NCBI GenBank assembly: GCA_030428785.1
Contig: JAUIEF010000007.1
Location: 1,333 to 65,332 of the forward strand
Length of the DNA stretch: 64,000 nt
Direction of reading: 5' to 3'
Source: a bacterium
Lineage (GTDB): Bacteria > Planctomycetota > B15-G4
The translations under genes were made by a program, and so were the position numbers. Below, in pieces: positions 21,824 to 63,948 of this stretch. The notes beneath the pieces are model-generated. The model had not been told where the DNA came from. It made no database searches and saw only the letters and a program-made list of their open reading frames with translations. How positions within the stretch are numbered: position 1 is the stretch's first letter; the number at the start of each line of letters is the position of its first letter.

Positions 21824-22093
<270 letters not shown>

Positions 22094-22201: not shown

Positions 22202-22273
22202 GGGACTCCTTTCCTGGAATCGGGCGGGGCCCCCACTGGGCGTCACCCCACCCGATTCCAGGAAAGGAGTCCC
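22202..22273 (+). promoter_or_regulatory. perfect 23-bp hairpin sequestering the RBS of the four-helix-bundle gene
   Basis: GGGACTCCTTTCCTGGAATCGGG (22202-22224) is the exact reverse complement of CCCGATTCCAGGAAAGGAGTCCC (22251-22273). After one mismatch, 4 more bp pair (22226-22229 with 22246-22249), leaving a 16-nt loop. The 3' arm contains AGGAAAGGAG and ends 4 nt before ATG 22278. Confidence 0.7.
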
Positions 22274-22277
22274 TCAC

Positions 22278-22598
22278 ATGTTCGACGTCCTCGAGATCGC
22301 GATCCGCATGGTGGCCTCGCTTCGCTCGCCGTTGGCGACGCTCCAGGTGTGTGATCGCGACATGCACCGCCAGGTTCGGAGAGCTGCTGCCTCGGTGACC
22401 CTCAACATCTCCGAGGGTCAGCGTCGCGGCGGGAAGGATCGCCGGCATCACTGGCGCGTTGCGGCAGGTTCGGCGGACGAGGTGCGGACCGCGTTGCGTA
22501 CCGCGGTGGCGCTGGGTGACCTGCGCGAGGAGGACCTCGCCGAATCCTTCGAGCTCCTCGACCGCGTGCTCGCCATGCTCTGGAAGCTCACGCACTGA
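22278..22598 (+). CDS. four-helix-bundle protein (23S rRNA intervening-sequence protein / Avd-like family)
   Basis: Carries [42 protein letters not shown]. This matches the family hallmark xLRRAAxSIxxNIAEGxGR....F..IA.GSxxE. 106 aa, predicted all-helical. Confidence 0.8.
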
Positions 22599-22636: not shown

Positions 22637-22744
22637 TTCCGGTTTCGGTTTCGGTTCCGGTTTCCGATCCGGCTTCGGGTTCCGATTCGGCTTCGGTTTC
22701 GGCTTCGGCTTCGGCTTCGGCTTCGGCTTCGGCTTCGGCTTCGG
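22637..22744 (-). repeat. hexanucleotide array 2: 18 units NTTCGG/NTTCCG, inverted relative to array 1
   Basis: Counted directly. The 5' units are degenerate. The last 7 units are perfect CTTCGG (22703-22744). 22698-22744 is the exact reverse complement of 21828-21874. Confidence 0.95.
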
Positions 22745-23565: not shown

Positions 23566-23721
23566 GACCGCGGGTTCGACCGCGGGTTCGGCCTCGGCTT
23601 CGGGTTCCGCCTCGGCTTCGGGTTCGGCTTCGGCTTCGGGTTCGGGTCCGGCTTCGGCACCGGCTTCGGGTTCGGCTTCGGCACCGGCTTCGGGTTCGGC
23701 ACCGGGTTCGGGTTCGGGTTC
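23566..23721 (-). repeat. hexanucleotide array 3: degenerate GGSTTC units in the same orientation as array 2
   Basis: Begins with a tandem 12-mer GACCGCGGGTTC x2 (23566-23589). GGCTTC/GGGTTC units follow, interspersed with GGCACC and CGCCTC. Starts 43 nt after the lipoprotein stop. Confidence 0.9.
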
Positions 23722-23877
23722 GCTCCCCATCGGCGTCATGCCCAGGATCCACCGATGGACCGTTCAGCGGCCGCGGGCGCCCACCCCCTCCACGCCTCCC
23801 CCCGACACCCCCGCCCGCGGTCCGCTGCGAGGGCCGCGAGTCGAAGAAAGCCCCCCCAACCGACCCGCGCCCAGACC

Positions 23878-46881: not shown

Positions 46882-47091
46882 CGCACGGCGCGTGACGCGC
46901 GGCGCCCGACCCGGAGCTCACTCGCGCGTTCGCTCGTCTCCCCGCCCGACGTCCGACGTTCCCGCACGCGCGACCCACCGTCTCGCGCGGCGCCCGACGC
47001 CTTGCCTCCCCGCACGCCGAGCGCGCCTCCCCGCCTCACGCGGCGCCCGACGCCCAGGCTCCGCCCGCTCGTTCGCGCGACACGTCCCCAG

Positions 47092-47361
47092 CGAGCGCGG
47101 GGGTGTGGGACGCCGTCCCCACCGAGTCCCCGTGCACGAGCCGCGTCCGACGTGCCGGGTGCGAGGGGAGGGTCCCCCCGAACGCATGGAGACGAGCCGA
47201 AGAGCAGCCGCGACCGGGCCGCAGGCCCGGAGCGGCGGAGGCAGCGAGCACGCGTCCCCGAGCGGCCGCGGGCGGGGGGACCCTCCCCTCGCACCCGGCC
47301 GCCACCGACGCCTCGCCCCCACCCACTCGCCGCGAGCGGCGCCCCACGATCCCGTCGCGAG
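47092..47361 (-). repeat. structured 3'-end element, type 1, copy 1a (270 nt)
   Basis: Aligns with 47969-48258 in the flanks and loop. The stem arms are 47155-47179 and 47274-47298, 25 bp and all Watson-Crick. The loop is 94 nt. The right end abuts the yjbQ stop codon (47362-47364). Strand is the inferred sense, co-oriented with the upstream gene. Confidence 0.85.
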
Positions 47362-47781
47362 TCACTCCCCCGTCAGGTGCAGCACGATCGACCGCCGATG
47401 AGCCCGCGTCCGGTGCTCGGCGACGAAGAGCCCCTGCCACGTGCCGAGGGCGAGCGCGCCGTCGACGACGGGGATCGTCTCGCTCGTGCTCGTGACGGCC
47501 GCGCGGAGGTGCGCGGGCATGTCGTCGGGGCCTTCGGCGGTGTGCGTGTGCGCGGGGTCGCCGTCGGGCGCGAGCCGGCCGAGCCAGGCGACGAGGTCGC
47601 GGGTTGCGGAGGGGTCGGCGTTCTCCTGGATGAGCAGGCTCGCCGAGGTGTGCCGGCAGAACACGGTGAGCAGCCCGGTGCGGATCCCCGAGCCGCGTAC
47701 GAAGTCCGCGACCTCGCGGGTGATCTCATGGAGCCCGCGCCCGGGCGTCCGCACCTCGAGGATGGTCTGGGCGTGGGTCAC
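47362..47781 (-). CDS. yjbQ: YjbQ/UPF0047 family protein (secondary thiamine-phosphate synthase family)
   Basis: GTG start. 139 aa. Carries HEITREV, LLTVFCRHTSASLLIQENADPS, DDMPAHLRAA and LGTWQGLF, the family hallmarks. Confidence 0.85.
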   Translation of the reverse strand: MTHAQTILEVRTPGRGLHEITREVADFVRGSGIRTGLLTVFCRHTSASLLIQENADPSATRDLVAWLGRLAPDGDPAHTHTAEGPDDMPAHLRAAVTSTSETIPVVDGALALGTWQGLFVAEHRTRAHRRSIVLHLTGE

Positions 47782-47968
47782 GGTTCAGGCAGCGGGTGAG
47801 GGTCGGCGGACGAGCGGTGAGAGCGTAACCGCGCGCCGCCTGGTCCGAGTGACCGATCCGCCGCGCGAGCCTCCCGCGCGAGCACGAGCTCCCCCGCGAC
47901 TCCATGACCGTCCCACGCGGCACCCGCCGTCGCCACCCCCGAGCCCCCCTCGCGCGCCCTCCCCCGGT

Positions 47969-48258
47969 GAGCGCCGGGGTGTGGGCCGCCTCACCCACCG
48001 GGTCCCCGTGCACGGTGCTCGTCCGACGTGCCGCGGGCGCGGAGAGGCTCGACCCTCCCTCCCCGGGAGACTTGAGTCGAGCCGAGTGGCAGCCGCGATC
48101 GGGCCGAAGGCCCGGAGCGGCGGAGGCAGCTGACCGAGGTTCCCGAGCGGCCCTGTCGGACGGGGAGGGAGGGTCGAGCCTCTCCGCGCCCGCGGCCGCC
48201 ACCGACTCCCCCCCCGCGCCCCCGCGCGGCGCTCAGCGTCCCACGATCCGGACGCGAG
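47969..48258 (-). repeat. structured 3'-end element, type 1, copy 1b (290 nt)
   Basis: The stem arms are 48031-48064 and 48162-48195, 34 bp and all Watson-Crick. Their sequence is unrelated to the arms of copy 1a. The loop is 97 nt and its core is conserved with copy 1a. The right end lies 3 nt from the tRNA-Gln 3' end. Confidence 0.85.
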
Positions 48259-48261
48259 CGA

Positions 48262-48335
48262 TGGTTCCCGAACTAGGACTCGAACCTAGATTACCTGATC
48301 CAGAGTCAGGCGTCCTGCCATTGGACGATTCGGGA
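48262..48335 (-). tRNA. tRNA-Gln (anticodon CUG), CCA encoded
   Basis: The reverse complement reads TCCCGAA T C GTCC AATGGCA GGAC G CCTGA CTCTGGA TCAGG TAAT CTAGG TTCGAGT CCTAG TTCGGGA A CCA. Full cloverleaf with a U1-A72 pair, as in many tRNA-Gln. Confidence 0.88.
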
Positions 48336-54427: not shown

Positions 54428-55855
54428 ATGAGCTTCCACCTGTACGACTCGATGCGCCGCGAGAAGGTCCCCTTCGAGCCCCTCATCCCGGGCAAGGTGG
54501 CCATGTACAACTGCGGCCCGACGGTCTACAGCGCCGCGCACATCGGCAACTTCCGATCGTTCCTCTTCGCCGACGTCCTGCGCCGCTGGCTCGAGGTCTC
54601 CGGCTACGAGGTCACCCAGGTGATGAACATCACCGACGTGGGCCACCTCCGCGACGACGACCCCGAGCAGGGCGCCGACAAGATGGAGGAGGCCGCGAAG
54701 AAGGAGCAGCTCGACCCCTGGAAGATCGCCGAGAAGTACACGGCGCTCTTCTTCGAGGACCTCGACACGCTGCGCATCCAGCGCGCCCACCAGTACCCCC
54801 GCGCCACGGACCACATCCCGCAGATGATCGAGCAGATCCAGCAGCTGCTCGACTCCGGCCACGCCTACGAGGCCAGTGGCGCCGTCTACTACGACGTCTC
54901 GAGCTTCCCCGCCTACGGCCGCCTCTCCGGCAACACCGGCGACGACCTCATCGCCGGCGCGCGCGTCGCCGTCGCCGAGGAGAAGAAGGACCCGCGCGAC
55001 TTCGCCCTCTGGAAGAGCGACCCCCACCACCTCATGCAGTGGGACTCGCCCTTCGGCCGCGGCTTCCCCGGCTGGCACATCGAGTGCTCCGCCATGAGCC
55101 AGTCCATCCTCGGCGAGACGCTCGACCTCCACACCGGCGGCGAGGACAACGTCTTCCCCCACCACGAGTGCGAGATCGCGCAGGCCGAGGGCGCCACCGG
55201 CAAGCCCTTCGTCCGCCACTGGATGCACGCGCGCCACCTCATGCTCGACGGCGGCAAGATGAGCAAGTCGCTGGGCAACCTCTACACCATCGGCCAGCTC
55301 GCCGAGATGGGGCACGACCCCGTCGCCGTCCGCTTCGCCCTGCTCCGCGTCCAGTACCGCCAGGTGCTCAACTTCACGCTGCCCGGCCTCGAGGAGGCCG
55401 CGACCGCCGTGCGCCGCCTGCGCCTCTTCGCCACCGACATGGAGGAGGCCGCCGCCGGCGCCGAGCCCGGCGACCCGCCCGCGTGGCTCACCGCCGCCGT
55501 GCAGCGCTTCGACGAGTCCATGGACGACGACCTCAACACCTCCGGCGCGCTCGACGGCGTCTTCACGCTCATGAACGAGGCGAACCGCCGCAAGGTGACC
55601 GGCCCCGACGCCGCCGCGGCCCTCGCCGCCCTGCGCCGGATGGACCGCGTGCTCGACGTCGTCCGCGAGGACGCCCCCGAGGACCTCGACGCCGAGGTCG
55701 AGGACCTCGTCCGCCGCCGCACCGAAGCACGCGCGGCGAAGGACTGGGCCACCGCCGACGAGATCCGCGACCGCCTCGCCGAGCTGGGAATCGAACTCCT
55801 CGACGGCAAGGACGGCAAGGTGCGGTGGCGACGCACGGGCGCGGGCGCGAGCTGA
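54428..55855 (+). CDS. cysS: cysteine--tRNA ligase
   Basis: Same frame as track ORF 53741..55855, trimmed to ATG 54428. Carries MYNCGPTVYSAAHIGN (HIGH motif), GWHIECS and KMSKSLGN (KMSKS motif). Confidence 0.92.
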   Translation: MSFHLYDSMRREKVPFEPLIPGKVAMYNCGPTVYSAAHIGNFRSFLFADVLRRWLEVSGYEVTQVMNITDVGHLRDDDPEQGADKMEEAAKKEQLDPWKIAEKYTALFFEDLDTLRIQRAHQYPRATDHIPQMIEQIQQLLDSGHAYEASGAVYYDVSSFPAYGRLSGNTGDDLIAGARVAVAEEKKDPRDFALWKSDPHHLMQWDSPFGRGFPGWHIECSAMSQSILGETLDLHTGGEDNVFPHHECEIAQAEGATGKPFVRHWMHARHLMLDGGKMSKSLGNLYTIGQLAEMGHDPVAVRFALLRVQYRQVLNFTLPGLEEAATAVRRLRLFATDMEEAAAGAEPGDPPAWLTAAVQRFDESMDDDLNTSGALDGVFTLMNEANRRKVTGPDAAAALAALRRMDRVLDVVREDAPEDLDAEVEDLVRRRTEARAAKDWATADEIRDRLAELGIELLDGKDGKVRWRRTGAGAS

Positions 55856-55898
55856 GGGGCCGACTTTCCCGGTCGGTGGACTGCGTGCGCGGGACGGT

Positions 55899-56114
55899 GG
55901 GAGCGTTCCGCTCGGGCGGGCGCGGCGGGCCGGACGCGCTGGCCGAGAGTCGGTGGCGCCGACCGTGAGGAGACACATGGGCCCCGTGCTCAGACAAGTC
56001 CTCGGGCCTTCGGCCCTGCGGGAGATAACTGCGCGCGGGGCCCATGTGTCTCCTCACGTCGCATCCGGAACGGTTTCCACGGCGCGTCCGGCCCGTCGCG
56101 ACCTTCCTCGCTGC
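55899..56114 (+). repeat. structured 3'-end element, type 2, copy 2A (216 nt)
   Basis: Reverse-complement homolog of 56499-56729. The stem arms are 55965-55985 and 56037-56057, 21 bp and all Watson-Crick. The loop is 51 nt and contains GGGCCTTCGGCCC. It begins 43 nt after the cysS stop. Confidence 0.85.
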
Positions 56115-56498
56115 ACTCACACCGCGACCCGCGGGGATGGGTCCGCGCGGAGAGGGACGCCGGCGGACGACACCCGCGGGGAGACGACGTCGCGTGTGGC
56201 CGTGCATCGCGCGTTCCGCGCTCGCACTCGTCGGCGGAAATCAGGCAGGACGCCGAGTGCCGGGAGCCCATCGGCGTCGCGAACAGCAGGCGTCATGCCG
56301 GCGGTCAGCCGTCACGTCGGGAGCGAAGCGATCCGACTTCACGTGGTCCGTGACGAGCCGAGCGGTTCTCTCGCGCGTTCCCCGCGCGGCGTCGGCTTCC
56401 GTGCCCCGACCCGCTCCATGCCGCCGGCCCGCCCGCACGGATCGGTGCGGTCCGTGCGCCGACCCATCGACGCCTCCCACTCGCGTCACGATGGGAGC

Positions 56499-56729
56499 GC
56501 AGCGAGGGAGGACGCGTCGGGACGGACGCGCCGTGGAAGTCGTTCCGGATGCGACGTGAGGGCATGTCTGCGGCCCACGCGCAGTTATCTCCCGCAGGGC
56601 CGAAGGCCCGAGGACCTCTTCGATCATAGGCCCCTTCTTGAGCATGGGCCGCAGACATGCCCTCACGGTCGGCGCCACCGACCCCACCCCAGCGCGTCCG
56701 TCCCGCCGCGACCGACCGAGCGGAGCGCC
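56499..56729 (-). repeat. structured 3'-end element, type 2, copy 2B (231 nt)
   Basis: The stem arms are 56556-56577 and 56645-56666, 22 bp and all Watson-Crick. Beyond the first GTGAGG, the arm sequence differs from copy 2A. The loop is 67 nt and shares GCGCAGTTATCTCCCGCAGGGCCGAAGGCCCGAGGAC with the reverse complement of 2A. It ends 7 nt from the stop of gene 56737..59160. Confidence 0.85.
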
Positions 56730-56736
56730 CTGGACG

Positions 56737-59160
56737 TCACCCGTCGCCGAGGTAGCCGAGCGCCTTGAGCTCCGCGAGCGCCGCCCCGGCCGCGTCGCTC
56801 CCCACCGCGTGGCCGCCCTCCGGCGCCGTGTACCGTCCGAGGAACCACGCGAGGCGGCGTCGCAGCTCGGCGACGTCGTCGGGGCGGACCGCCGCGACGT
56901 CCTCGTGCTCGCCGGGGTCGTCGGTGAGGTCGTAGAGCGAGGCGGGTGACGCGGCGTCGTCCGTGCGCGGGCCGATGAGCTTGGTCCCGTCGCTGAGCAC
57001 GGCGCGGCGGTCGTCCGATTCCGCGACGCGCACGTCGGGGCGCGCCGTGTCGACGGCGGCACCGCGCGGCTCGCGGCCGCCGCTCCGCGCGTCGCCGCCT
57101 TCGGTCGGCGTCGTGCCGCGGTGTGCTCGCAGCGAGCGGCCCGGCAGGTCATCGGGGACCGGCAGGCCGACGACGTCGAGCACCGTCGGCACGAGGTCGA
57201 GGCCCGAGACGGGGACGTCGCTCGCGCCGGGGCGGGCGTCCGGGTAGCGCACGACGAGCGGCACGCGGAGCTGCTCGGCGTGGAGCGAGGCGCCGTGGCC
57301 CAGGTGGCCGTGCTCGAGGAAGCCCTCCCCGTGGTCGCTCGTGAAGAGCACGAGCAGCGGCTCGTCGCCGACGCGCGCCTCGAGCTCGCGCAGGAAGGCG
57401 GCGACGTGCGCGTCCATGCCGGTCACGAGGCCGTCGTAGAGCGCCTCGACCCAGGCGGCGTCGGCGGGGTCGAGCGACAGCTCGCCGCGGTTGCACGGGT
57501 CGAGGACGTTGTGCGTGTCGACCTCGAGGTCGCGCAGCGGACCGGCGTAGGCCGGGTCGGTCCAACGGTCCGTGCGCTCGTAGGGCGCGTGGACGGCGTA
57601 GGTGTGCAGGAAGAGGAAGACCGGCCGCTCGCTGTCGCGCGCGGCGACGAAGTCGAGCGCGGCGCTCCAGTCGAGATCCTTGGGGTCGCGCGTGTCGTAG
57701 CGCTCGAAGCCCGCGTCGCAGCCGTAGACCGGGCGCAGGTAGCCGCCGCCCGTCAGCGCGCGGGTCTCGTAGCCGGCGTCGGCGAGGCGCGACGCGAGGG
57801 TCGTCGCCGTGTCGCCGAGCGCGGCGCTCGCGCGGTCGACGCCGTGCTGGTGCACCGCGAGGCCCGTGAGGAAGGAGACCGTCGACGGCAGCGTCCAGGG
57901 CGCGGTCGACACGGAGTCCGTGTAGACGACGGCGCGCTCGGCGGCCCACGCGTCGAGCGCGGGCGTCGTCGCGCGCGCCGCACCGTAGGCCGCGAGGCGG
58001 TCGGCGCGCAGGGTGTCGACGTCGACGAGCACGACGTGCGGTCGGTCGGGCACGCGCGCCGCGCCTCCGCGGAGGCGCAGGTCGGCCCAGAGGCCGTAGT
58101 CGTGGAGCGCGTCGCCGGCGGGCCCCGGCTCCGTGACGAGCCGCAGCGCCACGCGGCGTCCGCGGAAGCGCGCGAGGTCGACGACGGCCTCGGTCCACGC
58201 CTCGCCGACGTCGTCCGCGCCGACGGTCGCGCTCCACACGCGCTCGACGGTCGCCGTCGCGGAGCCTGAGTCCGGCGCACCGCCGGCCCCGTCGACCGCG
58301 CCGCCTCCCGCCCGTCCCTCGACGACGACCTCCACCGCGAAGGTCGCGCCGTCGCCGCGGCGGGGCGCGCGGCGCACGACGCCGTCCTCGATCGTCCAGC
58401 CCTCGGGCGAGACGCCGACCGCGACGTGCAGCCGGTCGGCGCGCAGGACGCCCGCCGGCAGCTCGAGCACGGACGGCGCGGCGAGCAGCACCGCGTCGCG
58501 CGTCACGTCGTCGAGCGTCGCCCGCGTGCGCAGGTCCGCCGGCGCCGGCTCGTGCCCCGTGAGCGCGCGCCCGCGCTCGACCCGCGCGAACTCCGCGACG
58601 GCCGGCACGCTGCCCACGAGGCTCACGCCCCGCGGCGGCCCCTCCGACACGGCGAGCACCATGTGCTGCCCGCGGTACCAACCCGCGAAGCGCTCGGGCA
58701 CGGGCGCCGCGTCGCCGAAAGACCAGCGCGGAACGTCGCGGCCGTCGACGCGCGCGACGGGCTCCGGCGCGCCCTCCACGAGCGGCAGCGGCGGTCGCGC
58801 CCACCAGAGGTCGCCGCGGCCGTGCGCCTCGAGCGTCGCGACCCACTCCGGCGGCATGGCCTCGGCGCGCTGCCACGCGAGCGGCGGCATGGGGACCTCG
58901 ACGCGCACGGGACCGCCGAGCGTCTCCGCGACGTCCGGCGGCAGCGCGTGCGCGGGCGCCGCGAGGAGTCGCGCGCCGTCGAGGCGCTCGAGCAGCCCGT
59001 CACCCGGTCGCCACTCGCCGTCGGTGCGCGCGACGGGTACCGCGCGCTCCCCGCCCGGCGCGGCGATCGTGCCCGGCACGTCCCCGCCGCACGCGACGAC
59101 GGCAAACGCGACGACGCACGCGACGAGTCCCCGTCGCGCGCGCCGCGCCCCGCCCGTCAC
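56737..59160 (-). CDS. sulfatase-like hydrolase/transferase lipoprotein (alkaline phosphatase superfamily) with a large N-terminal domain
   Basis: GTG 59160 overlaps the rbfA stop. Lipobox AFAVVACGG. The C-terminal half carries VVLVDVDTLRADRL, LVLFTSDHGEGFLEHGHLGHG. No clear CxPxR motif. Confidence 0.75.
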   Translation of the reverse strand: MTGGARRARRGLVACVVAFAVVACGGDVPGTIAAPGGERAVPVARTDGEWRPGDGLLERLDGARLLAAPAHALPPDVAETLGGPVRVEVPMPPLAWQRAEAMPPEWVATLEAHGRGDLWWARPPLPLVEGAPEPVARVDGRDVPRWSFGDAAPVPERFAGWYRGQHMVLAVSEGPPRGVSLVGSVPAVAEFARVERGRALTGHEPAPADLRTRATLDDVTRDAVLLAAPSVLELPAGVLRADRLHVAVGVSPEGWTIEDGVVRRAPRRGDGATFAVEVVVEGRAGGGAVDGAGGAPDSGSATATVERVWSATVGADDVGEAWTEAVVDLARFRGRRVALRLVTEPGPAGDALHDYGLWADLRLRGGAARVPDRPHVVLVDVDTLRADRLAAYGAARATTPALDAWAAERAVVYTDSVSTAPWTLPSTVSFLTGLAVHQHGVDRASAALGDTATTLASRLADAGYETRALTGGGYLRPVYGCDAGFERYDTRDPKDLDWSAALDFVAARDSERPVFLFLHTYAVHAPYERTDRWTDPAYAGPLRDLEVDTHNVLDPCNRGELSLDPADAAWVEALYDGLVTGMDAHVAAFLRELEARVGDEPLLVLFTSDHGEGFLEHGHLGHGASLHAEQLRVPLVVRYPDARPGASDVPVSGLDLVPTVLDVVGLPVPDDLPGRSLRAHRGTTPTEGGDARSGGREPRGAAVDTARPDVRVAESDDRRAVLSDGTKLIGPRTDDAASPASLYDLTDDPGEHEDVAAVRPDDVAELRRRLAWFLGRYTAPEGGHAVGSDAAGAALAELKALGYLGDG

Positions 59161-59687
59161 GGCCGGGGGTCCTCGGAGGCCTCGTCGACGGGGTCGCCGC
59201 CGGCACCCGTCGCGTCGTCGACGTCACCCGCCGCGGCGGCGCGCTCGGCGTCCCCGTCCGGGTCGCCGTCGGGCTCCGGCGCCTCCGCGCCCTCGCCGCC
59301 CTCCGCGGCGCGCCGCGCGGCCTCCTCCGCCTCACGCGCCTCGCGCTCCGCGGTGACCTCCGCGATGAGGTCGCGGACCTTGCTCTCCTTCTCGACCTGC
59401 GCGTCGAAGATGAACCGCAGCTCGGGCATGGTCCGCATGCGCAGCGTCGGCGCGAGCAGCTCCTGCACGCGTCCGCGCCCGTCGTGCAGCGCGCGCTGCG
59501 TCGCGCGGATCTGCCCCTCGCTGCCGAGCGCGGTGTAGAAGACCTTCGCGATCTTCTTGTCCTTGCTCAGCTCGACCTTCGTGATGGTCACGAAGCCGAT
59601 GCGCGGATCGGCGAGGCGCTCGCACACGATGACGGCGATCTTCTCGCGGAGGATCGCCTCCTGCCGCAGCTTCCGGTCCCAGGACAT
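59157..59687 (-). CDS. rbfA: ribosome-binding factor A with an acidic C-terminal extension
   Basis: Carries RIGFVTITKVELSKDKKIAKVFY and MPELRFIFD, typical of RbfA. A tail of about 60 aa follows, rich in E, A, D and G. Confidence 0.85.
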   Translation of the reverse strand: MSWDRKLRQEAILREKIAVIVCERLADPRIGFVTITKVELSKDKKIAKVFYTALGSEGQIRATQRALHDGRGRVQELLAPTLRMRTMPELRFIFDAQVEKESKVRDLIAEVTAEREAREAEEAARRAAEGGEGAEAPEPDGDPDGDAERAAAAGDVDDATGAGGDPVDEASEDPRP

Positions 59688-59697
59688 GGCGCGGGCC

Positions 59698-62607
59698 TCA
59701 GCCCTCGGAGGTGGACGACTCGAGCGTGCGCTTCACCTCGGTGACGGTGAAGGCCTCGATGACGTCCTCCTCCTTGATGTCGTTGTACCCGGCGATGTGG
59801 AGACCGCACTCGTAGTTCTCGCGGACCTCCTTCACGTCGTCCTTGAAGCGCTTGAGGCTGTCGAGGCGACCCGTGTGGATCACCGAGCCGTCGCGCACGA
59901 GGCGGATGTGGCAGTCGCGGGTGAGGATGCCGTCCGTGACGTAGCAACCGGCGATCGTGCCGTACTTGCTCGCCTTGAACGTCGCGCGGATCGTCGCGTG
60001 ACCGATGACCTCCTCCACCGACTCCGTGCCGAGCTGGCCCTCGATGGCCTTCTCGAGGTCCTCGGTGATCTCGTAGATCACGTCGTAGAACTTCACGTCG
60101 ATGCCGGTGCGCTGCACGGCCTGCCGCGCCCGCGTGTCGGGCACCACGCCGAAGCCGATGATGAACGCGTCGGAGGCGCTCGCGAGCAGCACGTCGTCCT
60201 CGGTGATGCCGCCCACGCCGGTGCGCAGCACCTTGAAGCGCACCTCGGGGTGGCTCACGTCCTCGACGGTCTGCCGCACGACCTCCATCGAGCCCATGTT
60301 GTCCGCCTTCACGAGCACGTTGATCTCGGTGACGTTCTGGGACTCGATGGTGTCGAACAGGTTCTCGAGCGTGACCGCGTCGGACGCCGGGGTGATGTCC
60401 TCGCGCGACTCCTCCTTGCGCTCGGCGGCCACCTCGCGGGCGGTGTTGATGTCCTCGACGGCGAGGAAGCGCGCGCCGGCGGCCGGCGGCTCGTCGAAGC
60501 CGACAATCTGCACGGGCATGGACGGCCCGGCCTCGTTGATGCGCTTGCCGCGGTCGTCCAGCAGCCAGCGCACGCGGCCCACGGTGGTCCCGGCGATGAT
60601 CGGGTCCTTGGGACGCAGCGTGCCCGACTGCACGACGGCCGTGCAGACGACGCCCATGTTCTTGTCCTTGGTGGAGTCGATGACGACGCCGCGCGCGGGC
60701 ACGCCCGGGTCGGCGGTCAGCTCCAGGAGCTCGGTCTCGAGCGCGAGGCGCTCCAGCAGGTCGTCCAGGCCCTGGCCGGTGGTCGCCGAGACCTCGACGA
60801 CACCCACCTCGCCGCCGTAGTCCTCGACGAGGACGCCGGCGCTCGCGAGCTGCTGGCGCACCTTCATCGGGTCGGCGTTGGGCCGGTCGCACTTGTTGAT
60901 CGCGACGACCATCGGCACCTCGCCGGCGACGGCGTGGTCGATGGCCTCCTGCGTCTGCTCCATGACGCCGTCGTCCGCCGCCACGACGAGCACCGCGACG
61001 TCCGTGAGCTGCGTGCCGCGGGCGCGCATCTCGGTGAACGCCTTGTGGCCCGGCGTGTCGAGGAAGGTGACGTGCGCGCCGCTCTTCGTCTCGACGGAGT
61101 ACGCGGACGTCTTCTGCGTGATGCCGCCCGCCTCCTTCGCGGCGACGCGGCTCTTGCGCAGCGTGTCGAGCAGCGTCGTCTTGCCGTGGTCGACGTGACC
61201 CATGACGGCCACGACGACCGGGCGCGGCTTCTCGCCCTTCGCCATGCCCTCGGCGCGCTCGGACTCGCGGTCCTTCATGCGCGCCTCGGCGCTGTCCGGC
61301 GGGAGGATGTGGACCTCGCGCTCGAGCGCGACGCCCAGCTCGAGGAGCTGCTCCTCGTCGAAGACCGCGTTCTTGACCGCGTTCTTGTCGCGCGGATCGA
61401 TGTCCGGGCGGTGCGAGAGGATCTCGCGCGTCTTGATGCCCAGCTCCTCCGAGAGCTCCCGGATGCCGATGGGCGGACGCACGGTGATCGGGTGCGTCGG
61501 GCGCGGCACGTTGCGCGCGGCGCGGCGCGACCGGCCGAAGCGCGAACGGCGCGGAGGCGGGCGACGCGGCGGCGGACGACGCCGGCCCGCGAAGTGGCCG
61601 AGCCGGATGGCCGAGAGCGCCGTGTTGTCCTCGGGGTCGAAGACGAAGTCCCCGCCGCCGGGCTTGCCGGACTTGCCGCGGACGCGCTCGCCCTCGCCGC
61701 GCCGCGTGGCGCCGCTGTCGCGGCTCTTCGCCGCCGGCATGGCGCGCGTCGGGTCGAGCGGGTCGTACGCCGGCGCGGAGCCGCCGCCGCGACGGCGCGG
61801 CTCGGTGTCCTGCGTGGGCAGGTCGATCTTGCCGAGGATCTTCGCGCCGCGACGCTTCACGCGGTCGGGCACGTTGGGCACGCCGATCGGGCGCACCTCG
61901 TCGTCCTCGCCGGCGGCCTCGGGCGCGTCGCCGCCGCCCTCCTCGTCGCCGGAGGCGTCGGTCGCGGGCTCCGCGGTCTCGTCGTCGGAGGGCGCGGCCT
62001 GGCCGCCGAAGGTCACGACGACCTGCTTCTCGTCGTCGGCGGTCTCCTCGGCGCCTTCGTCCGCGACGGTCTCCGCGGGCGCGGCCTCCTCGGCCGGCGC
62101 GTCGCCCTCGGCGGCCGCCTCCACGGGCGCGGCCTCGGCCTCGGCGGGCTCGGCCACGGTCTCGGCGGCGGCGGCCTGCTCGGCCTCGGCCGCGGCGGCG
62201 GCCTCCGCGGCCGCGGCCTCGGCGGCGGCCGCCTCGGCCTGCTCGCGCTCCTCGTCCGCGGGCGTGCGGATGCGCACGGTCACCGAGATGTCCGGGTCGC
62301 CGGCGCCGTCACCGGCCGCGACGGTCTCGGTCACCGCGTCGTCGGCCGGGGCCTCCGCGTCGGAGTCGGTCGCCGCGTCGTCGTCGCCCGCCTCCGCGGC
62401 GGCGGCGGCGGCGGCCTTCGCGGCCTTGCGCGCGGCCTTCTCCTCCTGCTCCTTGACCTCCTCGAGCCAGGCGGCCCGGAGGATGCCCTCAGTACCCTTG
62501 GGCAGGTTCGACGAGTGGGACTTCACGCCAAGGCCCAGTTCCTTGGCGATGGCAAGCATGCGCTTGCTGTCCGCGTCGAGTTCCTTGGAGAGTTCGTGCA
62601 GTCTCAA
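59698..62607 (-). CDS. infB: translation initiation factor IF-2
   Basis: TTG start at 62607, with GGAG about 9 nt upstream and an in-frame TGA immediately before it. G-domain motifs [19 protein letters not shown] and NKCD. Long Ala/Glu-rich N-terminal region. Confidence 0.95.
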
Positions 62608-62613
62608 GGGACA

Positions 62614-63696
62614 TCACTCCGACCGTGCCTCGGGGTCGCCCGCGGCGCCCGCGCTGCCGGCTCCCTCCGGGGAGCCCTCGGCTGCGGGGGCGTCGACGCC
62701 GGCCGGTCCGGCCTCACCAGGAGGCGGTCCCAACGGCTGCCCGTTCTCGTCACGGGCGCTGTGCGGCATCTGGGTCACACCTTCGATCTTGATGTCCCAG
62801 CCGGTCAGGCGGGTGGCCAACCGGACGTTCTGCCCCTTGCGCCCGATCGCCAGCGCGAGCTGGTCGTCGGGCACCACGACGCGGCAGATCTTCGTCTCCT
62901 GCTCCATGTTCAACGAGGCGATCTGCGCGGGGCGCAGCGCGTTGATGATGAGATCCTCGTCCGAGTCGCTCCAGCGGATGATGTCGATCTTCTCGCCGTT
63001 GAGCTCGTCGGTGATGGCCTTGATGCGGGTGCCGCGGATGCCCACGCAGGCGCCGACGCAGTCGACGCGCGGGTCCGTGCTGTGCACCGCGATCTTCGTG
63101 CGGTAGCCCGGCTCGCGGGCGATGCGACGGATCTCGATGATGCCGTCCGCGACCTCGGGCACCTCGAGCTCGAAGAGCCGGCGCACGAGCTCGGGGGACA
63201 CGCGCGACAGGATGATCTTCACGCGCGTGCCGACGCGCTTCACCTCGGTGATGATCGCGCGGATGCGGTCGCCGGGGCTGTAGACCTCGCCGCGGACGCG
63301 GTCGGCGCGCGGGATGATGGCCTCCGCGCGGCCGATGTTCACGATGATGGCGCCGCCCTCGATGCGCTGGACCTGCCCGAGGATGAGCTCGCCCACCCGA
63401 CCCTCGAAGTCGGAGAAGACGACCGCGTTCTCGGCGTCGCGCAGCGACTGGATGATGACCTGCTTGGCCGTCTGCGCCGCGATGCGGCCGAGGTCGATCG
63501 CGCCGTGGTCCTGGTCGCTCGTCACCGACAGCTCGCCCGTCTTGCGGTCGAGCGTGCAGTGGATCGTGACCTCCTCGCCCACCTTCTTCTGGATCGCCGC
63601 GACCATCGCCTGCTCGATCGTCGTGAAGATCAATTCACTCTCGATGTCCTTCTCGAGGTGGATCGCTTCGATGATGCGCAGCAGTTCGCTGTTCAT
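62614..63696 (-). CDS. nusA: transcription termination/antitermination factor NusA (short form, 360 aa)
   Basis: N-terminus MNSELLRIIEAIHLEKDI. S1 domain and two KH domains (GTRIKAITDEL, GRKGQNVRLATRLTG). No AR1/AR2 acidic repeats. Confidence 0.92.
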   Translation of the reverse strand: MNSELLRIIEAIHLEKDIESELIFTTIEQAMVAAIQKKVGEEVTIHCTLDRKTGELSVTSDQDHGAIDLGRIAAQTAKQVIIQSLRDAENAVVFSDFEGRVGELILGQVQRIEGGAIIVNIGRAEAIIPRADRVRGEVYSPGDRIRAIITEVKRVGTRVKIILSRVSPELVRRLFELEVPEVADGIIEIRRIAREPGYRTKIAVHSTDPRVDCVGACVGIRGTRIKAITDELNGEKIDIIRWSDSDEDLIINALRPAQIASLNMEQETKICRVVVPDDQLALAIGRKGQNVRLATRLTGWDIKIEGVTQMPHSARDENGQPLGPPPGEAGPAGVDAPAAEGSPEGAGSAGAAGDPEARSE

Positions 63697-63948
63697 GACG
63701 CGGACGCCGACGACCCGGGCGGGCCGCGGCGCCCCCCGTGAGTCGTGGGAAGGGCCGTGGGTTGTCGCGCACGGCGACCCCGCGGAGGCGGGGCCGGACG
63801 TGCCTCACCGCGGACCGCCCGCGAGCGCGCCGGAATTGAAACAAGTGGGCCGAACCGCGCGGCGCGTCCGCATCCTGCGAACGGCGCCGCCGACGGGCCG
63901 GGATCCCACTTGTCGCCACGCGAACACGAGAAGCCGGGTGAACCGCCT

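Follow-up and report, generated by a model that had tools for sequence, protein, structure and literature searches.

A family of long-hairpin repeats at the 3' ends of genes in a planctomycete genome, with resemblance to REPIN and MITE sequences

Between the cysteine-tRNA ligase gene cysS and a convergent sulfatase-family gene, the 64,000-nt stretch of planctomycete DNA analyzed here (referred to as the window; contig JAUIEF010000007.1 of assembly GCA_030428785.1, lineage B15-G4) contains an 881-nt gap, 55856-56736 from stop codon to stop codon, which codes for no protein. The gap holds two inverted copies, A and B, of a long hairpin element. Together with two related elements, C and D, which form a pair 8 kb away, they make up a family of large palindromic repeats. 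Each unit is located at the 3' end of a gene, and it is the strand of that upstream gene that folds better and contains more G-U pairs. The interpretation we favor, with slightly better than even confidence, is that of a lineage-specific repeat family similar to REPINs (doublets of repetitive extragenic palindromic, or REP, sequences that form hairpins) and to miniature inverted-repeat transposable elements (MITEs). Its members would be transcribed together with the preceding gene as hairpins at the 3' end, may act as RNA and may be mobile.

Two inverted hairpins in the gap downstream of cysS

The features of the gap and of the two genes that flank it are the following.

54428-55855, + strand: cysS, which encodes a cysteine-tRNA ligase of 475 aa and precedes element A; homologous proteins bear the same name and contain PF01406
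55888-56133, + strand: element A, a hairpin of about 245 nt (copy 2A of the initial annotation), given in the sense of its better-folding strand
55914-55941, + strand: 5' arm of the outer stem of A, pairing with 56080-56107 (consensus columns 20-47 with 204-231 of alignment A2)
55949-55958, + strand: junction motif GTCGGTGGCG, common to A, B, C and D
55965-55992, + strand: 5' arm of the inner stem of A, pairing with 56030-56057; its central 16 bp differ from those of B at 9 pairs, all of them compensated
55993-56029, + strand: apical region of A, a 100%-conserved loop core that contains the mini-hairpin CGGGCC-UUC-GGCCC (56003-56016)
56134-56492, no strand: spacer between A and B, non-coding, unremarkable in structure and poorly conserved in the second composite copy
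56493-56736, − strand: element B, a hairpin of about 245 nt (copy 2B of the initial annotation), beginning directly past the sulfatase stop codon
56621-56638, − strand: 18 nt absent from A, inserted in the apical internal loop of B (columns 99-116 of alignment A2); an insertion of the same type is found in P0122, a reading frame described below
56737-59160, − strand: sulfatase-family gene (PF00884), the upstream gene of element B and the last gene of a nusA-infB-rbfA-sulfatase array

When read in the same sense, A and B are 86% identical, with long blocks of complete identity. A repeat finder recovered them as two pairs of inverted arms, 55979-56136/56477-56634 (158 nt, 81% complementary) and 55888-55992/56639-56743 (105 nt, 76% complementary). 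The 37-nt loop core GCGCAGTTATCTCCCGCAGGGCCGAAGGCCCGAGGAC is identical in the two units and occurs exactly twice in the window, where no occurrence is expected, and the same is true of the block at their junction. The initial annotation had described two reverse-complementary copies of one element adjoining the 3' ends of convergent genes. Both statements are borne out, with coordinates that are right to within a few bases, and the genes are cysS and the PF00884 sulfatase-family gene. The loop insertion it had noted in B, at about 16 nt, exists and measures 18 nt. Its 384-nt spacer indeed has no credible open reading frame (ORF), but is shorter than reported: weak similarity between A and B continues into it for some 20 nt at either end, and the unique spacer is about 340-360 nt long. 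An assembly artefact was rejected because 14% of positions differ between the two copies, both of which are internal to the contig.

Each of the two units folds as one long hairpin, the inner arms of which are 93% complementary. Their minimum free energies (MFE) of −152 and −155 kcal/mol correspond to z-scores of −7.5 and −8.3 relative to dinucleotide-shuffled sequences, not one of which, out of 200, folded as well. The consensus fold of A and B comprises 78 pairs, not one of which is broken. Ten pairs are altered on both sides and still paired, nine of them within the 16 bp at the center of the inner stem, and four further pairs are altered on one side only in a wobble-compatible (G-U) manner. 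Shifting the 3' partners by 1-3 columns lowers the pairing from 100% to 36-53%. Conservation is distributed unevenly: a 38-nt apex and the junction are identical in A and B, whereas the inner stem is altered at 9 of 16 pairs. In other words, the inner stem keeps pairing rather than sequence, and the loops keep their sequence. A segment of 8-9 bp in the inner stem may be flipped between the two units (AGACACATG versus CATGTCT), which we judged too weak to interpret. The spacer has z-scores of +0.2 and +0.5, and its structure is hence not unusual. A strand that spans the full 871 nt folds best as a single giant A:B hairpin of −612 kcal/mol; the compensated differences in the inner stems favor local folding of each unit.

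Codon periodicity, evaluated as GC content by codon phase, is absent across the whole gap. The phases have GC fractions of about 0.5/1.0/0.75 in cysS and about 0.85/0.95/0.55 in the sulfatase gene, whereas the gap is flat at about 0.7. The 271-aa ORF that spans the gap has no Pfam match, the spacer has none in any of its six frames, and the long ORFs of the gap are what is expected by chance in a sequence of 74% GC. The non-coding nature that the initial annotation had ascribed to the gap is upheld by the flat codon-phase GC and the missing Pfam matches, and a real protein gene, which would have spoken against it, was found by neither approach. The absence of a six-frame Pfam signal also led us to reject a decayed gene in the spacer, including a decayed gene for a 23S rRNA intervening-sequence protein like that at 22.3 kb.

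That the ORF at 55953-56768 (263 or 271 aa), or some other ORF of the gap, is a genuine protein gene we regard as virtually ruled out, even though a gene caller predicted a 263-aa product there (P0121) and two database proteins are similar to the gap ORF. In addition to having flat GC at every codon phase and no Pfam match in any frame, this ORF reads the reverse-complementary units A and B in unrelated frames. One of the two similar proteins, P0122, is frame-shifted with respect to it, and the similarity is limited to the hairpin units. The composition, rich in Arg, Pro and Gly, is that which off-frame translation of 74% GC DNA would give. The hairpin repeats (55953-56768) translated by gene callers as the Arg/Pro/Gly-rich ORFs P0121, P0122 and P0123 are now present in public protein collections, and these spurious ORFs should be masked in annotation.

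Insertion at the cysS junction and further members of the family

The cysS gene converges on the sulfatase gene in five relatives as well, and the junction there measures −22, 25, 24, 64 and 24 nt compared to 881 nt here. In a sixth relative, a different neighbor lies 102 nt from cysS. Because the block is missing at the cysS junction in all six, this comparison, made with relatives that are distant (69-82% CysS identity), indicates that the block of about 850 nt is a lineage-specific insertion, acquired in the lineage of the window. The description of the block in the initial annotation thus stands, with the amendment that the whole of it is an insertion relative to six relatives. A tight convergent junction, 25 nt long or overlapping in the relatives, can apparently absorb an 850-nt structured insert with both genes undamaged. 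Neither BLAST nor a covariance model of A and B detected the element in the loci fetched from the relatives, and a long perfect hairpin of comparable kind is absent from about 100 kb of their DNA; a short hairpin spans the cysS junction in relatives where it measures 24-25 nt. On one contig of a Planctomycetota metagenome-assembled genome (L024, 848-1557), the A/B covariance model gave four weak matches (E 0.3-5) within 700 nt, and this may be an unrelated GC-rich hairpin region. The gene array on the other side of the gap, nusA-infB-rbfA-sulfatase, occupies 56737-63804 on the − strand (Pfam: PF00884, RBFA, IF-2 and NusA). The rbfA-infB-sulfatase order is found in one relative (L102) too, and hence this unusual linkage is conserved in the lineage.

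When the spurious gap-spanning ORF served as the query of an exhaustive HMMER search, further copies came to light in two proteins from NCBI assemblies, P0122 and P0123. The 248-aa P0122, likewise a spurious ORF, lies on a 25-kb contig. It opens within an A-like 3' arm (MCHLTSHPERLPRRVRPVASFLAALT), continues with about 120 residues of little similarity, which correspond to a diverged spacer weakly similar to that of the window, and ends with a B-like unit that has about 85% amino-acid identity, the same inner stem and the same loop insertion. P0123 is an 85-aa ORF on an 11.7-kb contig and covers a solo unit of the A/B type. Judged from these reading frames, the A-spacer-B layout recurs with conserved units and a free spacer. 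By its CysS, the window belongs to the Planctomycetota, and an exact look-up retrieved no recorded gene for this protein. The closest CysS proteins in 5.8 billion clusters are only 82% identical to that of the window, and because the collection contains no closer CysS, P0122 and P0123 are probably other loci of the same genome or of a poorly sampled sister genome rather than the orthologous site. A six-frame chimeric protein query against these clusters found only the window's own ORF, which is a false negative, since HMMER later found P0122 and P0123. A profile search returned P0123 only, and word-indexed protein search missed the repeat-derived ORFs twice. The gap has no BLAST match among plasmids and phages.

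Two more units were found in the window itself by a fold-energy scan together with shared motifs. The scan flagged the regions of A, B, C and D and a separate hairpin near 22.1-22.2 kb.

47075-47361, − strand: element C, a hairpin of about 285 nt that begins directly past the UPF0047 stop codon; z = −4.1, with 32-nt inner arms that are 94% complementary
47362-47781, − strand: UPF0047 gene, the upstream gene of element C
47955-48258, − strand: element D, a hairpin of about 300 nt that begins 3 nt past the CCA of tRNA-Gln; z = −6.6, with 36-nt inner arms that are 100% complementary
48262-48335, − strand: tRNA-Gln(CTG), which precedes element D

C and D are 84% identical, and 9 of their 88 predicted pairs are altered on both sides. 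BLAST shows no link between C/D and A/B. The covariance search that the initial annotation had suggested, with a model built from A and B, was run over the window and 38 loci. It recovered A and B, in sense and antisense, and no other element, the model being too specific to detect C and D. The connection between the two pairs is seen in their motifs. GTCGGTGGCG, just 5' of the inner stem, matches the window five times, with four of the matches in the four elements and 1.1 matches expected. The apical mini-hairpin CGGGCC-TKC-GGCCC has four matches in the window, all in A-D; CACGTCG, just 3' of the inner stem, is common to A/B and C/D; and GTCGGTGGCG and CGGGCCTKCGGCCC occupy the same relative places in all four elements. 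The common design is that of a unit of 245-300 nt with an imperfect outer stem, a junction with GUCGGUGGCG on its 5' side and CACGUCG on its 3' side, a perfectly paired inner duplex of about 26-45 bp and a conserved apex with the mini-hairpin CGGGCC-UKC-GGCCC. A/B and C/D appear to be two subfamilies of one family, an assignment based on short motifs and shared architecture and less certain than the homology within each pair. The 64-kb window contains at least four units, and further copies are present on two other contigs. Hence, the possibility raised by the initial annotation that such blocks are missing elsewhere did not materialize, given the related units at 47-48 kb and the two copies on other contigs.

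A separate small repeat is found next to element C. The 193-nt non-coding stretch between the stop codon of an esterase gene (46881) and the 3' end of C carries three exact copies of the 13-mer CGCGGCGCCCGAC within 154 nt (46898-47051), and all other matches to it in the window contain mismatches.

The hairpin near 22 kb belongs to a different structure. A PF05635 gene (22278-22598, + strand), which encodes a 106-aa four-helix protein of the 23S rRNA-intervening-sequence type, resembles an inserted cassette, with a (CCGAAS)x44 hexamer array (21828-22090) on one side and the reverse complement of this array (22640-22744) on the other; a third such array is located at 23583-23722. An RNA covering the cassette would fold into a long stem that places the gene in the loop, similar to an rRNA intervening sequence. 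The hairpin itself, with a perfect stem of about 28 bp (GGGACTCCTTTCCTGGAATCGGGCGGGG ... CCCCACCCGATTCCAGGAAAGGAGTCCC; 22203-22275), stops 3 nt short of the ATG with which the PF05635 gene begins and ranks among the most structured spots of the window.

Position, strand bias and alternative explanations

The units follow their upstream genes closely. The distance from the 3' end of the gene is 0 nt for B (sulfatase) and C (UPF0047), 3 nt for D (tRNA-Gln CCA) and 32 nt for A (cysS). In all four units, the strand of the upstream gene folds better than its complement by 10-21 kcal/mol. For A, the MFE is −176.4 kcal/mol on the + strand and −166.6 kcal/mol on the − strand, with 8 and 3 G-U pairs, respectively; for B, it is −162.6 kcal/mol on the − strand and −151.3 kcal/mol on the + strand. 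Across A-D there are 8-12 G-U pairs on the upstream-gene strand versus 3-6 on the opposite one, and isolated stem mismatches on the upstream-gene strand are of the G-U type in nine cases and of the A-C type in two. As A and B lie on opposite DNA strands, this bias tracks transcription and not a fixed DNA strand. The initial annotation had placed the two copies head-to-head. The inversion is correct, but the better-folding, G-U-rich strand is the opposite of the one it had written, so that the RNAs of A and B would be arranged tail-to-tail and be co-directional with cysS and the sulfatase gene. Location behind genes and G-T pairing have both served as arguments that REPs are transcribed (PMC3733652). 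The strand bias and the position of our units similarly point to transcription with the upstream gene, which is suggestive but not conclusive.

Most likely, the units are transcribed as a 3' extension of the upstream gene. A transcribed unit would form a very stable hairpin that probably limits read-through into the convergent gene, and the read-through partner facing cysS would be the highly expressed nusA-infB-rbfA array. The hairpin probably also blocks 3' exonucleases, and its perfect duplex of 26-45 bp would offer a substrate of the RNase III type. The sequence of the inner duplex would be free to change provided that pairing stays. At the level of DNA, A-spacer-B is an inverted doublet that resembles the REPINs of other bacteria at roughly ten times their size. 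It was inserted between cysS and the nusA-infB-rbfA-sulfatase array, and its spread is probably that of a non-autonomous mobile element. Transcription of the units, if it occurs, would make them natural, very stable 3'-end hairpins without U-tracts in a 74% GC genome, and this bears on how transcripts are ended and insulated in such organisms.

Several points weigh against this interpretation. We infer transcription and any RNA role of the units from the DNA sequence, and correction of palindromes at the DNA level (template switching) could keep the inner stems perfect with no RNA-level selection. The excess of G-U pairs is modest, with small counts, and copies within a subfamily share ancestry. 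A U-tract follows none of the four units, the sequence after them is G/C-rich, and a terminator scan of 55500-57100 gave no hit; the missing U-run and the empty scan rule out a classical intrinsic terminator. No classical promoter was found in the gap either, the spacer being without a sigma-70-like one. When the aligned ends of the four units and of the A-B composite were inspected, no abutting target-site duplication was seen, only a non-abutting TGGAC, and there is no transposase, integrase or reverse transcriptase among the roughly 35 genes of the window, which are of the housekeeping kind. As a result, mobility is argued for only by the insertion and the extra copies. Finally, exact scans with a loop 20-mer gave 0 matches in the GTDB species genomes, those with an 18-mer gave 15 matches in JGI metagenomes, all due to chance and with dissimilar flanks, and five exact-pattern scans of IMG/VR gave chance matches only.

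A serious rival to this interpretation, albeit one we consider unlikely, is that the units act solely as selfish DNA, namely palindromes of the MITE or foldback-transposon type that play no part as RNA. The hairpin would be a transposition substrate in single-stranded or cruciform form, with the junction and apex as transposase sites, and the inner stems would be kept perfect by template switching or hairpin-templated repair. A lineage-specific insertion of about 850 nt with terminal inverted repeats of about 245 nt and no coding capacity is what such DNA would look like. Furthermore, the composite recurs elsewhere with conserved ends and a diverged spacer, the whole block folds as a single giant hairpin, and REPINs have been proposed to move as single-stranded hairpins (PMC3116915). 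However, the ends show no target-site duplication, the window lacks a transposase, and the mismatches on the upstream-gene strand, which is presumably the transcribed one, are G-U rather than A-C. In addition, the orientation tracks the upstream gene in four of four units, with A and B on opposite strands, for which there is no evident reason at the level of DNA only. This last observation also speaks against a DNA site for recombination, replication or topology that acts as a cruciform or a folded single strand, in the manner of attC, folded phage attP or single-strand origins: A and B are on opposite DNA strands, yet have the same sense relative to transcription. Long palindromes with conserved unpaired bases in the outer stem would suit such a site, and folded single-stranded DNA tolerates G-T wobble as well. 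Nevertheless, we find this explanation very improbable, as there is no integrase or Rep gene nearby, no GC-skew switch at the locus and no similarity to plasmids or phages, and the units are far larger than attC sites. A replication terminus or dif site was rejected on account of the missing GC-skew switch.

The strong covariation around invariant loops, and the fact that both subfamilies retain the same motifs, could also be explained by independent genes for a structured non-coding RNA, trans-acting or protein-bound, with the apex and junction recognized by a protein and the variable duplex conferring identity on each copy. With no Rfam match, this would be a new class. We nonetheless think it rather improbable. 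On the favored strand there is no room for a promoter, given that the units begin 0-3 nt past a stop codon or tRNA end, and for the opposite strand the spacer offers no sigma-70-like promoter. In essence, the fold is a single long hairpin that lacks complex tertiary features, and the element is absent at the orthologous site in all relatives compared. A more speculative version of the RNA idea, to which we give little credence, sees in the units not junk repeats but an as yet undescribed class of RNA modules on the 3' ends of mRNAs and of a tRNA, in which a dedicated protein reads the invariant motifs of both junction and apex and the perfect, freely co-varying duplex of 16-36 bp is the working part. 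The duplex could then be, for example, an RNase III-cut precursor of copy-specific small duplex RNAs, or a double-stranded RNA tag that marks or insulates transcripts, and such modules would amount to a hairpin-RNA processing system in bacteria. The preferred explanation remains that of a REPIN/MITE-like repeat family co-transcribed with the upstream genes.

Comparison with known repeats and structured RNAs

Among structured RNAs, no counterpart of the element was identified. At the Rfam gathering threshold only two tRNAs pass in the window and nothing is found at C and D; families such as 6S, Y RNA, retron msr and ribozymes do not reach it. At relaxed E-values, the matches are limited to hairpin models of plant and animal microRNAs, far below threshold. 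A retron non-coding RNA was rejected because the gap has no ORF with a coding signal and the neighboring genes have no reverse transcriptase domain. The likeness to an intrinsic or bidirectional terminator consists of a GC-rich hairpin just past the stop codon of each convergent gene, but there is no U-tract, no terminator comes near the size of a 245-nt multi-part hairpin, and the loops are conserved in sequence.

The element resembles REP/REPIN, ERIC and Correia-type repeats, shares no sequence similarity with them and is a member of none of these groups. The enterobacterial ERIC/IRU sequences, like the Correia elements, are intergenic hairpin MITEs that are non-coding, imperfectly palindromic and transcribed into mRNAs along with neighboring genes. 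With MITEs in general, our element shares the terminal inverted repeats, the lack of coding capacity and the presence or absence at an orthologous site, six distant relatives being without the block. It differs in that no target-site duplication flanks A, B, C, D or the composite; a parent insertion sequence with the same ends is absent from the window, and there are no plasmid or phage matches.

The Correia repeat enclosed elements (CREE) of Neisseria are non-coding, imperfect palindromes of 100-160 bp that are intergenic and are co-transcribed with their neighbors into long RNA hairpins (PMC2649163), as would be the case for our units. RNase III binds these hairpins and cuts or protects them, which alters the expression of adjacent genes, and variants with internal insertions exist (PMC2649163), as with the insertion in B. 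However, they belong to another phylum and have no sequence similarity to our units, which are about twice as long. Neither a TA-type target duplication nor a site for the integration host factor (IHF) was identified here, and the inner duplex of our units is perfect and differs between copies by compensated changes.

The resemblance to REPs and REPINs is seen in several respects. These repeats are palindromic, lie outside genes and are found either singly or as inverted doublets whose spacer is less conserved, and conserved units with a free spacer constitute the REPIN pattern (Bertels and Rainey 2011, PMC3116915). A doublet with its spacer folds as one large hairpin (PMC3116915), as do A and B, inverted around a spacer of about 360 nt. 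REPs mostly follow coding regions, where the neighboring genes are convergent or co-directional, and some directly abut a stop codon; the G-T pairs of their stems have been interpreted as an indication that they are transcribed (Di Nocera et al. 2013, PMC3733652). One end of a REP also bears a tetranucleotide tag, GTAG or CGTC (PMC3733652); in DNA of 74% GC, CGTC is common by chance. In contrast to the 20-40 nt of a REP, our units are about ten times longer, at 245-300 nt, and each is a multi-part hairpin in which the junction and apex are conserved and the inner duplex co-varies. Among the roughly 35 window genes, none encodes a Y1 transposase of the REP-associated (RAYT) type, and the units are not similar in sequence to REPs. 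Their covariation and conserved motifs are striking, whereas an architecture that amounts to one long hairpin is typical of mobile repeats. In summary, the element is new as a family and of an ordinary kind, and it adds well-defined, strongly co-varying and unusually large palindromic repeats from the Planctomycetota, a phylum in which such families have barely been described.

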